From a virus (lineage: Duplodnaviria > Heunggongvirae > Uroviricota > Caudoviricetes): a stretch of DNA of 4,850 bases. The notes beneath the pieces were generated by a model, which worked only from the letters and a program-made list of their open reading frames with translations, was not told the origin of the DNA and ran no database searches. The translations under genes and the position numbers were made by a program. Positions 23 to 4,850 of this stretch are shown one piece after another. The stretch lies in the IMG/VR virus record IMGVR_UViG_2778261251_000003; one strand, written 5' to 3'. Position 1 is the first letter of the stretch. Each line of letters starts with the position of its first letter.

Positions 23-337
23 TTATTTATCAGATGTTAGATTGTAATAATTGGTATAAGCTGAAATTGACTTCTGGCATGCTTCAAGAAATTCCTGTGG
101 ATTCATTCCTAGTCTTGCTTGCTCTGTGGTCAGAAAACGCTGTAAGAACTCATCTCCGCCAGGCATTTTTGTTGATTCTTGAAATGTTGCCATTTGTTTG
201 ATTGTGCCGCACATGCCAGCAAATTTCGAAGTTATCATGAGTTCTTGCAGGCCTTTAAGATCGCCATTATCTGATTTTGGTTTGGCGAAAACTATTGTAG
301 AGAAGAACAATATTAACAAAATAGCGATACGTTTCAT
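23..337 (-). CDS. hypothetical small secreted protein (104 aa precursor, about 86 aa mature) with Sec-type signal peptide; function unknown
   Basis: ORF track 23..337 minus. N-terminus MKRIAILLILFFSTIVFA-KPK has a basic n-region, hydrophobic core and V-F-A cleavage-type motif, with no lipobox Cys. Two Cys in the mature part (C43, C87). Its ATG (337-335) overlaps the mnt stop (336-334) as ATGA, implying translational coupling. No family recognised from memory. Confidence 0.6.
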   Translation of the reverse strand: MKRIAILLILFFSTIVFAKPKSDNGDLKGLQELMITSKFAGMCGTIKQMATFQESTKMPGGDEFLQRFLTTEQARLGMNPQEFLEACQKSISAYTNYYNLTSDK

Positions 338-585
338 TTTTCACTGTTGCCATGCATACATTTTAACTTCTCAACCTCATGCTCAAGCTCTATCAACCGC
401 GATGCTATAGTTGCAAGATCTAGTGCTTGAATATGTTTATTTTTTTCAGTCCATGCCTCAAGTGCTGCTACCATCTCAGCATTTAATGAACGAGAATTAG
501 CCTCAGCCAGTTCAATAAGACGTTCCTTTATCTCTACAGGAAGCCTCAGATTCACTTGAGGGTTTTTGTACTTACGATCAGACAT
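334..585 (-). CDS. mnt: Mnt-like ribbon-helix-helix transcriptional repressor (83 aa from ATG at 585-583; the ORF track's GTG at 591 would give 85 aa)
   Basis: Translation ...NPQVNLRLPVEIKERLIELAEANSRSLNAEMVAALEAW... aligns with my recollection of P22 Mnt (…HFNFRMPMEVREKLKFRAEANGRSMNSELLQIVQDAL…), including the RHH beta-strand and ANGRS motif. AGGA Shine-Dalgarno complement at 594-597, about 8 nt upstream of the ATG. 83 aa matches P22 Mnt length. Divergent from arc-ant as in P22 immI. Confidence 0.8.
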   Translation of the reverse strand: MSDRKYKNPQVNLRLPVEIKERLIELAEANSRSLNAEMVAALEAWTEKNKHIQALDLATIASRLIELEHEVEKLKCMHGNSEK

Positions 586-613
586 CGGCACATCCTGAAT
601 AATTTTTTACCAC

Positions 614-660: not shown

Positions 661-678
661 GTATGCGTACCACATACA
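642..678. promoter_or_regulatory. candidate operator sites: 9 bp direct repeat ATGCGTACC (642-650 and 663-671) and imperfect 19 bp palindrome TGTATGcgtaccaCATACA (660-678) over the Pant -10/start region
   Basis: The exact 9 bp repeat occurs twice, 21 bp apart (two helical turns), bracketing the Pant -10. The second copy lies inside an inverted repeat with 6 bp arms TGTATG/CATACA. The position matches where Oarc and Omnt sit at P22 Pant, but the sequence differs from the P22 operators as I recall them. Confidence 0.35.
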
Positions 679-689
679 AAGGAGCAAAA

Positions 690-836
690 ATGAAAGTTAA
701 GACATTAAGGATGCCAGAATGGCTGGAAAAGGCTTTGGAGCAGTCCGCGAAAAAGGATGATCGGTCGTTCAGTAATGAGGTATTGAGGAGACTAAAGGAG
801 TCAGTAGCTAAGGATGGAATTGTTTGTCCAGAATGA
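690..836 (+). CDS. arc: Arc-like ribbon-helix-helix repressor (48 aa)
   Basis: Absent from the ORF track because it is under 60 aa. Hand translation: MKVKTLRMPEWLEKALEQSAKKDDRSFSNEVLRRLKESVAKDGIVCPE, stop TGA at 834-836. Aligns with recalled P22 Arc (…NLRWPREVLDLVRKVAEENGRSVNSEIYQRVMESFKKEG…), sharing L-R-x-P, RS-x-N-xE and R-x-x-ES-x-K-xG. Strong RBS AAGGAG 5 nt upstream. Sits immediately upstream of ant as in P22. Confidence 0.75.
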   Translation: MKVKTLRMPEWLEKALEQSAKKDDRSFSNEVLRRLKESVAKDGIVCPE

Positions 837-902: not shown

Positions 903-1832
903 ATGAAAAGTATAGCAACAGCAGTATCTACTATCAACGTGCCATTCCACGGCGCAGAGCTTTATGTCGTCAATCACAACGGTGAGCCGTACACCCCAAT
1001 GAAACCTATCGTTGAAGGTATGGGTATGGATTGGGCTTCACAGTTTACGAAAATAAAGCAACGGTTTAAAACCTCCATTGTGAAAATCACAATGCAGCTT
1101 CCTGGTGATGAACAGTGCCGTGAGATTATTTGTTTGGCACTTCGCAAACTTGCTGGCTGGCTGCAAACCATCAGTCCAAACAAAGTCCGCCCTGAAATCC
1201 GCGACAAGGTAATCCAGTATCAGGAAGAGTGTGACGATGTGCTCTACGAGTACTGGACTAAAGGCCATGTAGTTAACCCACGCAAAGCTAAAAAGGCGTT
1301 GCCGGGTAAAATCACCACTGAACAGCAGGAAGCCATTAAACAACTCGTCATGAGTCGCGGTCAGTCTCTGCCAAAAGAAAAACAGGCGAAGGCAATGATT
1401 ACCATGTGGTCGTCGCTGAAATCTCATTTTGGGTGTTCATACAAAGAAATCAGCGATGAGCAGTTTACCGAAGCTCTGTCACTTGCAGCTCGCGTTCCGC
1501 TTGAAGGCGAGTTAATCGGCAAACAAGAGAAGAAAGCAAACGAGCTTTCTGCAAAAGAAGCAAACAGCCTTGTATGGTTATGGGATTATGCCAACCGCTC
1601 ACAGGCATTATTCCGCGAACTGTATCCGGCGCTAAAACAAATTCAATCGAACTATTCAGGCAGATGTCATGACTGTGGTTATGAGTTCTCCCGTATTATC
1701 GATATGGCGAGAGACGTTTTAATCAATCACTCACGAGATGTTGATATCAATGAGCCAGACGGACCAACGAATCTTTCCGCATGGATGAGACTTAAGAATA
1801 AAAAATTACCTCCTTCAGTACATAACTACTGA
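903..1832 (+). CDS. ant: phage antirepressor Ant (309 aa)
   Basis: ORF track 903..1832. N-terminus (…INVPFHGAELYVVNHNGEPYTPMKPIVEGMGMDWASQF…) resembles the phage antirepressor N-terminal domain. Length close to P22 Ant (about 300 aa). Position after arc and before the tailspike matches P22 immI. RBS TGAGGA 888-893. Confidence 0.85.
   Translation: MKSIATAVSTINVPFHGAELYVVNHNGEPYTPMKPIVEGMGMDWASQFTKIKQRFKTSIVKITMQLPGDEQCREIICLALRKLAGWLQTISPNKVRPEIRDKVIQYQEECDDVLYEYWTKGHVVNPRKAKKALPGKITTEQQEAIKQLVMSRGQSLPKEKQAKAMITMWSSLKSHFGCSYKEISDEQFTEALSLAARVPLEGELIGKQEKKANELSAKEANSLVWLWDYANRSQALFRELYPALKQIQSNYSGRCHDCGYEFSRIIDMARDVLINHSRDVDINEPDGPTNLSAWMRLKNKKLPPSVHNY
909..937 (-). promoter_or_regulatory. candidate Psar promoter (minus strand) within the first codons of ant
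   Basis: Minus-strand -35 TTGATA (937-932), exact 17 bp spacer, -10 TATACT (914-909). One of the best sigma70 matches in the window, oriented antisense to ant. Confidence 0.45.
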
Positions 1833-1850
1833 CAGATAACCAACGCAACG

Positions 1851-1874
1851 ACCCAGCTTCGGCTGGGTTTTTTT
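1851..1874 (+). terminator. rho-independent terminator downstream of ant
   Basis: Stem CCCAGC (1852-1857) / GCTGGG (1862-1867) with TTCG tetraloop (1858-1861), followed by a run of seven T (1868-1874). Lies 19 nt after the ant stop. Confidence 0.75.
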
Positions 1875-1932
1875 ATACCCAAAATTCACCGTAGCCACGC
1901 TGCGGCGATTCCTTGCATCTGGAGCAAATTAA

Positions 1933-2271
1933 ATGACAGACATTACAGCCAATGTGATTGTATCTATGCCTTCGCAACTCTTCACTATGGCGCGTTCTTT
2001 TAAAGCGGTTGCCAATGGCAAAATTTATATCGGTAAAATTGACACTGACCCGGTAAATCCTGAAAACCAGATTCAGGTTTATGTGGAGAACGAAGACGGT
2101 TCTCACGTTCCTGTTTCGCAACCAATCATCATTAACGCTGCTGGATATCCGGTATATAACGGACAGATTGCCAAGTTCGTAACTGAGCAAGGCCATTCCA
2201 TGGCTGTATATGATGCGTATGGTGCGAAGCAGTTCTATTTTCCTAATGTGCTGAAGTATGACCCTGACCAA
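1933..2271 (+). other. tailspike N-terminal head-binding (particle-attachment) domain, ending at the conserved YDPDQ junction
   Basis: Residues 1-113; similarity to recalled P22-family tailspike N-termini stops just after YDPDQ (aa 109-113), the usual module-exchange boundary. Confidence 0.7.
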
Positions 2272-4062
2272 TTTCAGTTCACGCTCTCGTCAGACACTGG
2301 CGCAAATCTTGTCGGCATCAAGAGAACTGGACTGCCAAATAATAACTCTACTACTGTTGGTGCTTACTATCAGACAACACCTATCAACGCGGTAACAGAT
2401 TACGGAATGAAAGGGGATTTCGACCCGTCAACTGGATTTGTTAACGGAACGAATAACCGTTCTGCACTTCAACAATTGATGGATGATCTGGTAAATATCG
2501 GTGGAAACAAAACTGTAACCATTCCTCCGGGTAACTATTACTTCAACTTTGACGGTAGCACTAATCCTGGTGGTGTTGGGGTTATGTGGGGAAGGGTCGG
2601 TGCAGGGTTAAAGAATGTCACATTCCTGTGCTATGGCGCCACATTTTACTCTGGGAGCATTGGCAGACTTAACGGCATATTCAGCGCTAATTATGGTGTA
2701 AGGATAAAAGGCTTGAGAGTGATAGGGTTCGGCGGCGGAACGCTCGCTCCTTCACGAGAAAGGGATGCTATCTTTGCTCTTGCCTACAACTGCTGTGGGG
2801 TAACATTTGATGAGTGTTACTTTGCTAACAGCATGGGGGACTGCGTTTATCTTGGTGGCAGTCTTGATGACGGCTCTATAACTGGATTATTTTGCAGGGA
2901 TATCGCTTTTAATGGCTGTACTTTAAAAGAAAGATACGGGGATGGTATTAGATCTTACTACAGCGGATCTAGGTCAAGGATGGCTATTGCTGTTATCGAC
3001 TGCGTTGGTCTCAGGATTGATAACTGCAAAATAGTAGGCGGAATAGACTTCGAACCAAACGCAACAAACCAGCGCCTGCAGAATATGATGGTAGGTAATA
3101 CCAGGTTCCATGCAGGAAATGTCCTTGCATACACTGGAACAAACCCATTTTACGAGGAGCAAATCAATAGCGGAACTCAGGTTATACGTGGAGACATCCG
3201 ATTCCAGACGCGAGCGGGTGGGGTCATCACTCAGAATATTCATATATCTAACGTATCATTCGACTACGGATGCATCAGGCAGACATCTCTTGGTATAGCT
3301 GACGTTATTTATGAAAACATAAGAATGCGCAGGGGTATATTGGTGGTTGGTTCTGACTCAGGCACAAACTTCAACCCATCTGCAAACTTCAATGATGTTT
3401 ATGTTGATCTGGCTCTTAACGGTTCAGATGATGATATCTTTGAGTTGAATGGGTCAGGCACAACACCTCCTACATTGCCAGCAGTAGTCATGTTGATACA
3501 GGGAAATCTTACATACGCAAGATTTAATGGGATAAGTGGAGGGAATACCATCGGTGCATTTAGTTACCTGTTTTATGCAGATCCAACACACACAGCTGGT
3601 GATGCGGGGAGGAGCATTTACGCAAACTGCAGCATACTTGGCGGTAACCTTTACAACTACACTATCCCGGATAGCAGTCAGGAACTTGGAAACACATCTA
3701 TGCCAGCCTCCGGAGTTGCCTTTACAAAATACCGTAGGATTAATACTGACCTAATCATGCAGTCGGTTGGTGCTCTAAGCATATCCGCAAGCGGTTCAAT
3801 AGACTGGAACGCATTCAGAACAAGCAAATTGGCAGTAACTGCTACCACTACAGGCCTGCAAATATCAGGGATTGTTAATGGCCCTATGGTTGGTGCTGAG
3901 GTTCAGATAAGGAATAGTGGATCAAACCCCATAATTCTGGCTCACAGTACATCTTTCTATCTTAAAGGAACAACTAGTGCCACCCTTGACGATACGAGAA
4001 AGGTGGTGACGTTCCAGTACATCTCTTCAGGAGTATGGACGGAGATATACCGGAACTTTTAA
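1933..4062 (+). CDS. tailspike protein (709 aa): P22-gp9-family N-terminal head-binding domain plus a putative beta-helix receptor-binding/glycan-depolymerase body of unassigned specificity
   Basis: ORF track 1933..4062. RBS GGAG at 1921-1924. First ~113 aa ([43 protein letters not shown]…NVLKYDPDQ) closely match the conserved head-binding domain of P22/Sf6/HK620-type tailspikes as I recall them. The remainder is Gly/Asn/Ser/Thr-rich with repetitive short-strand character typical of parallel beta-helix tailspikes, but I do not recognise it as the P22, Sf6 or HK620 body. Confidence 0.9.
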
Positions 4063-4099
4063 TCAGTGTCCATGGATGGCCATCTTTCACCAGTTATCT

Positions 4100-4464
4100 T
4101 CATTTCCCATCCCTAAAGACAATGAACTTTTAATAGACGAAACCGCACACCAGACTGATGGCGGAGAAGGTGATAAGAGTGACAATTGGAGGAAGTGCGC
4201 ATCTATCAGCAGCCCATCCAATAGTAGCACTCAGTGTCCCCATGAACCCGACATATAACATGTAGCGCATCGTTGTAGTCGATGTTTTGAATGTGAATCT
4301 TGCATTCGCGAAGAAGCTAAAGCTCACAGCCACAACGAAACCTGCGAAGTTTGCCAAAGCCTGATTGGTATGCTCGGCATAGATACATACACCAAAAACC
4401 ACCCAGTGTATAAGTGTGTTCAGCACACCAATCGAGGTGTGTACTTTGCAAATAGCTTTAACAT
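4100..4464 (-). pseudogene. gtrA: gtrA (bactoprenol-linked glucose translocase of O-antigen glucosylation operons), disrupted by a +2 frameshift and an in-frame stop
   Basis: Minus strand: ATG at 4464-4462 encodes MLKLFAKYT then hits TGA (4422-4420). The -1 frame continues SIGVLNTLIHWVVFGVCIY… (ORF track 4130..4426) to TAA at 4132-4130, after which the same frame reads KFIVFRDGK to a stop at 4102-4100. Joined, this gives a 120 aa GtrA-like protein matching my recollection of SfV/P22 GtrA. Span is 365 nt = 363 + 2. The frame switch maps to the GTGTGT tract at 4437-4442. Confidence 0.6.
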
Positions 4465-4850
4465 TTCTTATATCAGGTAATAATCAAAGTCATGAAGTCT
4501 ATCATCCAAGTCTCAATCGATCGATGACTTGCTGTGGTTGATGAGACAAAACTGATGCACACAAAGCTTTGCGCTGGATTGCAAGGCTTTGTACTCTTCG
4601 ATAGTGGTTAAGGCGGTTCACTCCACCTTTTCATCAATCCAGTCCGCCCACCACTGCATCATTTCTCTGCGCTTATCGTGGCAGATGCCTCACTATCACA
4701 CGGTGATGGTTCATTACTGGTTTGCATAATGGATAGAGAACTGAGGATAAAAGATATCCCAAAACCCAAAAATTGTTCTTGCCCCCTTATTTCCAGACAG
4801 GGGTTGTATCTTAAGTTAACATTACCCGCTGACGTCGATATTCTCGCGGA

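Follow-up and report, generated by a model that had tools for sequence, protein, structure and literature searches.

Does the gtrA-like sequence beside the tailspike gene of this P22-like prophage still belong to a working O-antigen glucosylation operon, or is it what remains of one? GtrA (PF04138) is a bactoprenol-linked glucose translocase, and gtrB encodes a bactoprenol glucosyltransferase of the GT2 family. The window analysed in this study, i.e. the whole 4,850-bp stretch of DNA, is the complete contig NODR01000134.1 of the draft assembly GCA_002517595.1 (L009). An earlier note, made from the sequence alone, had described a decayed glucosylation locus and suggested that the serotype-conversion module was lost. 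The analysis makes it highly probable that the feature is a non-functional remnant of a gtrABC operon at the right end of a P22-like prophage, located upstream of dacD in E. coli.

By its gene content, the window covers the right end of a prophage of the P22-like (Lederbergvirus) type that sits in E. coli upstream of dacD. The ORF list and Pfam search placed a 104-aa gene with no assigned function at 23-337 (minus strand), a Mnt/Arc-type repressor at 334-591 (minus strand), an Arc-like gene at 663-836 (plus strand) and the antirepressor Ant at 903-1832 (plus strand) ahead of the tailspike gene, and the families PF09008, PF03869 and PF10547/PF10548 were all present in the window, which thus has an immunity-I region of the Mnt/Arc/Ant type. 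In sibling assemblies, P22 ejection genes are found upstream (PF25688, PF16928 and PF26808, the gp7/gp20/gp16 genes, in loci L005 and L006) and dacD, sbmC and yeeA downstream. The flanks in these siblings are 99% identical to E. coli chromosomes, and the prophage host is therefore E. coli; many further P22-like prophages also occupy the site upstream of dacD. No tRNA was found in the window, and a search of Rfam gave zero matches across it. The 104-aa ORF at 23-337 has a hydrophobic, signal-peptide-like N-terminus (MKRIAILLILFFSTIVFA...) and matches phrog_19844 (function not assigned) end to end, with no match in the Pfam search. P22 has sieA between its ejection genes and mnt; this ORF, which lies between the ejection genes and mnt as well, is probably a prophage-expressed moron.

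The gtrA sequence occupies 4100..4464 on the minus strand and measures 365 nt compared with 363 nt for intact genes; it was delimited by translation, alignment, Pfam, its homologues and phrog_2224. Translation of the minus strand starts as MLKLFAKYT, continues as PRLVC and stops, with a second frame resuming the GtrA sequence as SIGVLNTLIHW...GFVY, a stop, and then KFIVFRDGK up to a final stop. The lesions were defined by an alignment (A1) to the intact gtrA(-gtrB) of phage HF4s and of E. coli E189, which contained exactly three structural differences (an insertion in an AC tract, a TAA codon, and the end of homology at 4092) and no other gaps up to the native gtrA stop at 4102-4100. The insertion, a +2 frameshift in codon 9/10, lies in the GTGTGT tract at 4437..4442, where the earlier note had placed it: the plus strand carries (GT)3 and the intact genes (GT)2, so that the minus strand reads GTACACACC in place of the GTACACC of the relatives, with two extra bases in the AC tract. 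Owing to this insertion, the native frame ends after 14 codons (MLKLFAKYTPRLVC and a stop). The in-frame TAA at 4130..4132 was likewise borne out by alignment and codon table as a nonsense codon replacing the TCA (Ser111) of intact genes, followed by nine further GtrA codons and the native TGA.

That a full-length GtrA-like protein emerges only after repair was supported by both profile collections. The repaired 120-aa protein scored 52.1 bits against PF04138 (cut-off 26.1) over profile positions 1-117 of 117, matched phrog_2224 ("GtrA-like O-antigen conversion") over residues 1-120 of 120 with E=2.4e-69, and was 93% identical to E. coli GtrA proteins; the full family profile was recovered only once both lesions were repaired. 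The unrepaired sequence has no uninterrupted frame of about 120 codons, the longest ORF being 98 aa. The best 120 homologues in a 5.8-billion-protein collection covered 100% of the repaired query and ranged from 117 to 201 aa, mostly 120, and not one of these 120 has its start at the internal GTG or its end at ...GFVY, so that the refuting condition on homologues set in the earlier note fails. From the sequence, then, the gene at 4464..4100 is a pseudogene of the GtrA family and not a functional member of it.

The substitution pattern leans the same way. Relative to seven intact gtrA genes, the window has five private non-synonymous changes (A30E, A60T, V81I, S111* and A119G) and two synonymous ones, compared with 13 non-synonymous and 28 synonymous private changes pooled over the seven intact genes; A30E hits a position that is invariant across those seven. 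With so few changes the difference is not significant alone (5:2 vs 13:28, Fisher p=0.086), and the excess of non-synonymous changes is only suggestive of neutral decay. Programmed frameshifting or phase variation at the (GT)3 repeat was considered and rejected: three units are too few, the tract is constant in all instances found, and gtrB and gtrC are absent. As a separate observation, an exact 11-nt direct repeat, GAACTTTTAAT, occurs at 4053-4063, spanning the tailspike stop, and at 4124-4134, covering the gtrA nonsense codon. Without that mutation the second copy would not be exact, since intact genes have GAACTTTGAAT there. With about 0.1 such repeats expected in the stretch, this one is probably due to chance, and it could be a seed for a further deletion of 71 bp.

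Downstream of gtrA, almost nothing of the operon is left. A gtrB vestige at 4092..4103 (minus strand), seen in alignment A1 and by megablast, consists of the start codon and three codons (ATG AAG ATA aCT; ATGAAGATAaCT). It matches the gtrB start of HF4s and E189 through ATGAAGATA, after which come one mismatch and CT before homology ends, and megablast matches to gtrA-gtrB loci accordingly start at window position 4092. The vestige overlaps the gtrA stop, as gtrB does in intact operons. Its presence implies that gtrB was once there and was removed, as opposed to a locus that originally had no gtrB. Beyond it, a 29-nt linker (4063..4091) leads to the tailspike stop at 4060-4062, and the 37-bp spacing between the gtrA remnant and that stop given in the earlier note is correct. 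Relatives with an intact operon have about 2.2-2.4 kb between the tailspike stop and codon 4 of gtrB. That gtrB and gtrC are missing before the tailspike gene also held up, as no ORF of gtrB or gtrC size is present in the window and gtrB is reduced to the 12 nt of the vestige; the linker had no match when compared with seven gtrC genes, and short-word BLAST of the linker against eight related loci returned chance 8-13-mers only.

The terminator is missing as well. A G+C-rich hairpin with a T-run directly follows the tailspike gene in the relatives E189, HF4s, EC17GD31 and E212. At the linker and junction, neither an intrinsic terminator nor a structured RNA was found, and the predicted fold was unremarkable (z=0.35). 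With no terminator in 4063-4110, tailspike transcripts would therefore enter gtrA in antisense, and transcripts from the gtrA side would enter the tailspike gene. The 39-nt exact junction had zero matches in species-representative genomes or metagenome contigs and was found in a single viral contig in IMG/VR.

The position of the remnant is that of an intact operon, adjoining the integrase and attachment site and convergent with the tailspike gene as in HF4s, E189 and LR-28. The region upstream of gtrA (4465..4620, minus strand) was delimited by two further alignments (A2 and A3), and all variants, relatives without any gtr genes included, conserve the segment between about 4490 and about 4680. 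Within it, 4618..4677 (minus strand) encodes the end of an IntS-type integrase, the last 19 codons (4677..4621) and the stop (DKRREMMQWWADWIDEKVE plus stop; 18/19 identical in tblastn with the HF4s integrase, E=6e-8), and homology to HF4s stops at 4678. Most simply, this integrase 3' fragment would be the core of the right prophage junction (attR), and the sequence from about 4490 onward upstream of gtrA probably represents one arm of the attachment site of the phage. The short-read contigs L007, L008, L010 and L017 break at 4672, as expected if the att core is repeated at both prophage ends. A consensus sigma-70 promoter was not found on the minus strand of 4465-4620. The same interval contains a single GATC site (4519-4522) and so falls short of the two GATC pairs of a P22-type Dam/OxyR phase-variable gtr promoter; the P22 gtr promoter has four GATC sites (phage L paper). 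Outward from the junction, 4678..4773 is a flank common to E. coli chromosomes upstream of dacD, as seen by nucleotide comparison, and 4774..4850 (plus strand) is the end of an IS3-family (ISEc48-like) element that begins TGTTCTTGCC and is identical to IS3/ISEc48 copies over 80/80 nt. Sibling assemblies have no IS insertion here and run on as CTCATCTTTAGG into dacD, which marks the insertion as specific to this strain and just outside the prophage end. The contig ends inside this multicopy element (up to 26 IS3/ISEc48 copies per genome), and the insertion probably explains the break.

Because the window is a 4.85-kb draft contig and short dinucleotide tracts may be miscalled, the frameshift and the stop could in principle be sequencing or assembly artefacts overlying an intact gtrA. 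Against this, the same bases are found in at least seven other assemblies (NCBI GCA_002925925.1 and GCA_002233385.1; IMG 2778261223; Logan SRR7871404, ERR3831510, SRR1816606 and SRR8989446), which stem from different projects, assemblers and pipelines; (GT)3 is no error-prone homopolymer; and gtrB and gtrC are missing in any case. An artefact is thus extremely improbable, and the concern for assembly error attached to the original claim is answered as far as assemblies, as distinct from reads, can show. The recurrence of the remnant points to common descent. The window is 100% identical, without gaps, over 1569-4773 in L004, L005, L006, L007, L008 and L010, and the tailspike protein is identical in 12 contigs on record and in an IMG/VR contig. 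The seventh assembly, L017, has the identical remnant together with 134 substitutions clustered in the tailspike gene at the equivalent of 2751-3707. Two prophage backbones (L005, L008 and L010 vs L006 and L007) are wholly different left of 1499, inside ant, and differ by 7 SNPs in 1508-1568, with identical right ends from 1569 to 4773; comparison of the two indicates that about 1499-1568 is a recombination joint within ant. All instances of the remnant have all three lesions, and by this shared signature they are one ancestral lineage and not independent confirmations of decay.

A further alternative is a locus that is reduced without being dead, in which a shortened GtrA, started at an internal GTG (4426), is still made and works with GtrB and GtrC encoded elsewhere, for example by a CPS-53-type yfdGHI locus. 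The residual ORF (4130..4426, minus strand; ORF list, Pfam and gene-index look-up) runs without interruption through 98 codons and, at 37.5 bits, still clears the PF04138 threshold, and GtrA and GtrB are interchangeable among gtr operons according to literature quoted in PMC4413052. This ORF is 13 residues short of GtrA at the N-terminus and 10 short at the C-terminus, and its match to positions 8-110 of the 117-position profile leaves out positions 1-7 and 111-117. Its GTG is not preceded by a purine-rich or Shine-Dalgarno-like ribosome-binding site on reading of the sequence, the shortened form occurs in none of the 120 best homologues, and an exact look-up of the product in a 153-billion-gene index returned zero genes. 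Gene callers also skipped it, their only call in the gtrA stretch being an antisense 35-aa ORF at 4158-4265 (L009 and L010). With the private substitutions leaning towards non-synonymous changes, including the one at an invariant position, and since a chromosomal gtr locus would supply its own gtrA, a working short GtrA is considered very unlikely, slightly less so than an artefact.

How the operon was lost is less clear-cut and involves the neighbouring tailspike gene. This gene (1933..4062, plus strand, 709 aa) encodes a P22-type head-binding domain (PF09008 at residues 1-113, E=3.5e-65) and, after it, a receptor-binding module (about 2275-4062) that is rare; nucleotide homology to other P22-like phages ends near 2273. 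Among 5,426 complete E. coli genomes and 50,697 phage records, the module had zero nucleotide matches, and a search of representative genomes also gave zero. At the protein level, the best phage matches of the module are tail fibres of TR1 and IME542, at 40% identity, and its relatives span 40-70% identity; those at 48-59% have other N-terminal adaptors, e.g., PF18668, and such fusions to different adaptors indicate that the module is mobile between phages. The patch in L017, with 130 substitutions (34 amino-acid changes), falls within this module and is recombinant. The loss of gtrB and gtrC may be tied to the gain of this foreign module. In its most specific form, this idea holds that one illegitimate recombination imported the receptor-binding module with the 29-nt linker (about 2275-4091) and in the same step displaced the old module along with the terminator, gtrC and gtrB, so that a host-range switch and the loss of conversion were one event, with the point lesions in gtrA arising later. 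The only part of the window without nucleotide homology to P22-like phages, prophages or E. coli is a single unbroken block from about 2275 to 4091, the module is mobile as noted, and nothing remains of the usual terminator or of the gtrC 3' end; a further appeal of the idea is that a serotype-specific gtrC would have no use on a new O-antigen. On the other side, no donor combining the module with the 29-nt linker was found, and the 70%-identical L018 loses homology at the stop codon. Two successive events would give the same picture, and E212 and Res13 have deletions at the site without this module. A single exchange is therefore a possible origin for the same remnant, to be held tentatively.

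A graded series at this prophage site places the remnant between intact operons and none. The gtrC-gtrB-gtrA layout convergent with the tailspike gene, which the earlier note had expected from P22-type phages, was seen at the same site in E189, LR-28, ET120 and UPEC132, and in the free phage HF4s, all with intact gtrABC and differing gtrC genes. In the prophage of E. coli XDL, gtrB is interrupted by IS3; the window holds the gtrA pseudogene with 12 nt of gtrB; the isolated phage E212 has a 46-nt gtrA stub, fused directly to the terminator of its tailspike gene; and no gtr sequence is left in EC17GD31 and Res13. The XDL prophage resembles the window in that its gtr operon is inactivated at the same dacD-proximal end, but it keeps intact gtrA and gtrC and its lesion is an insertion, whereas that of the window is a deletion. 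The gtr-less phages E212 and EC.P3 and prophages EC17GD31 and Res13 share the site and the block upstream of gtrA, with the tailspike gene followed by the att region; their deletions are deeper (the 46-nt stub or nothing) and they keep the terminator, unlike the window with its nearly full-length dead gtrA and no terminator.

Comparison with known systems agrees with this placement. The gtrABC operons of P22-like and Shigella serotype-converting phages (P22, epsilon34, HF4s, SfV, SfI, SfII and SfIV) resemble the window in their gtrA (87-96% nucleotide identity) and share with it their position between att/integrase and the tailspike or tail genes, the convergent orientation, and the overlap of gtrA stop and gtrB start. 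They differ from the window, where gtrA has a frameshift and a truncation, 12 nt are all that is left of gtrB, and both gtrC and the terminator are missing. The closest published parallel in kind is BTP1, a Salmonella P22-like prophage with a family 2 gtr locus in which gtrA with a premature stop lies beside the tailspike gene and gtrB is wholly deleted (Kintz et al. 2015, PMC4413052). Like the window, it is a P22-like prophage with a gtrA pseudogene by the tailspike and no gtrB, but BTP1 keeps a functional gtrC, an acetyltransferase independent of GtrA and GtrB, whereas the window has no gtrC and thus no modifying activity left at the locus. Additionally, gtrABC clusters in prophages range from largely intact to highly degraded (Villafane et al., PMC2629481), and a published list includes gtr genes that carry deletions, frameshifts or premature stop codons (Davies et al., PMC3688519). 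Decay of gtr operons in prophages is thus already documented, and both the operon whose pseudogene remnant the window holds and the position of that operon are well known.

Combined, these results favour decay of a former gtrABC operon, in which one rearrangement would have put the 29-nt linker in place of the terminator behind the tailspike gene, gtrC and gtrB apart from its first 12 nt (about 2.2-2.4 kb in intact relatives). The orphaned gtrA, with neither GtrB nor GtrC, is unable to glucosylate, and its point lesions would have arisen by neutral decay after the deletion. As lysogenic-conversion cargo flanked by two elements that the phage needs, the tailspike gene and the attachment site, the region would be open to loss, and these two would set the bounds of the deletions. 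That E212 is an isolated phage suggests that the gtr operon is dispensable for the phage life cycle. A more speculative extension concerns regulation: in BTP1, once gtrC is lost, the O-antigen of the host is shortened by the prophage tailspike (PMC4413052). In the present lysogen, which would no longer protect its O-antigen by modification, the region upstream of gtrA might still fire, and with the terminator gone transcription could pass through the dead gtrA into the tailspike 3' end, the antisense RNA damping leaky tailspike expression. This extension is regarded as very improbable.

Overall, the claim that the serotype-conversion module is lost stands for this prophage locus, on account of its lesions and the absence of gtrB and gtrC, and extends to this prophage only. 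The prophage should be annotated as non-converting, with gtrA as a pseudogene and gtrB and gtrC deleted, and a gtrA match alone is no ground to infer O-antigen glucosylation in these strains. Beyond annotation the significance is slight: the locus adds one clean step to a series that, at one E. coli prophage site, leads from the intact operon to its complete absence and illustrates the gain and loss of lysogenic-conversion cargo between the tailspike gene and the att site, possibly together with the exchange of tailspike modules.
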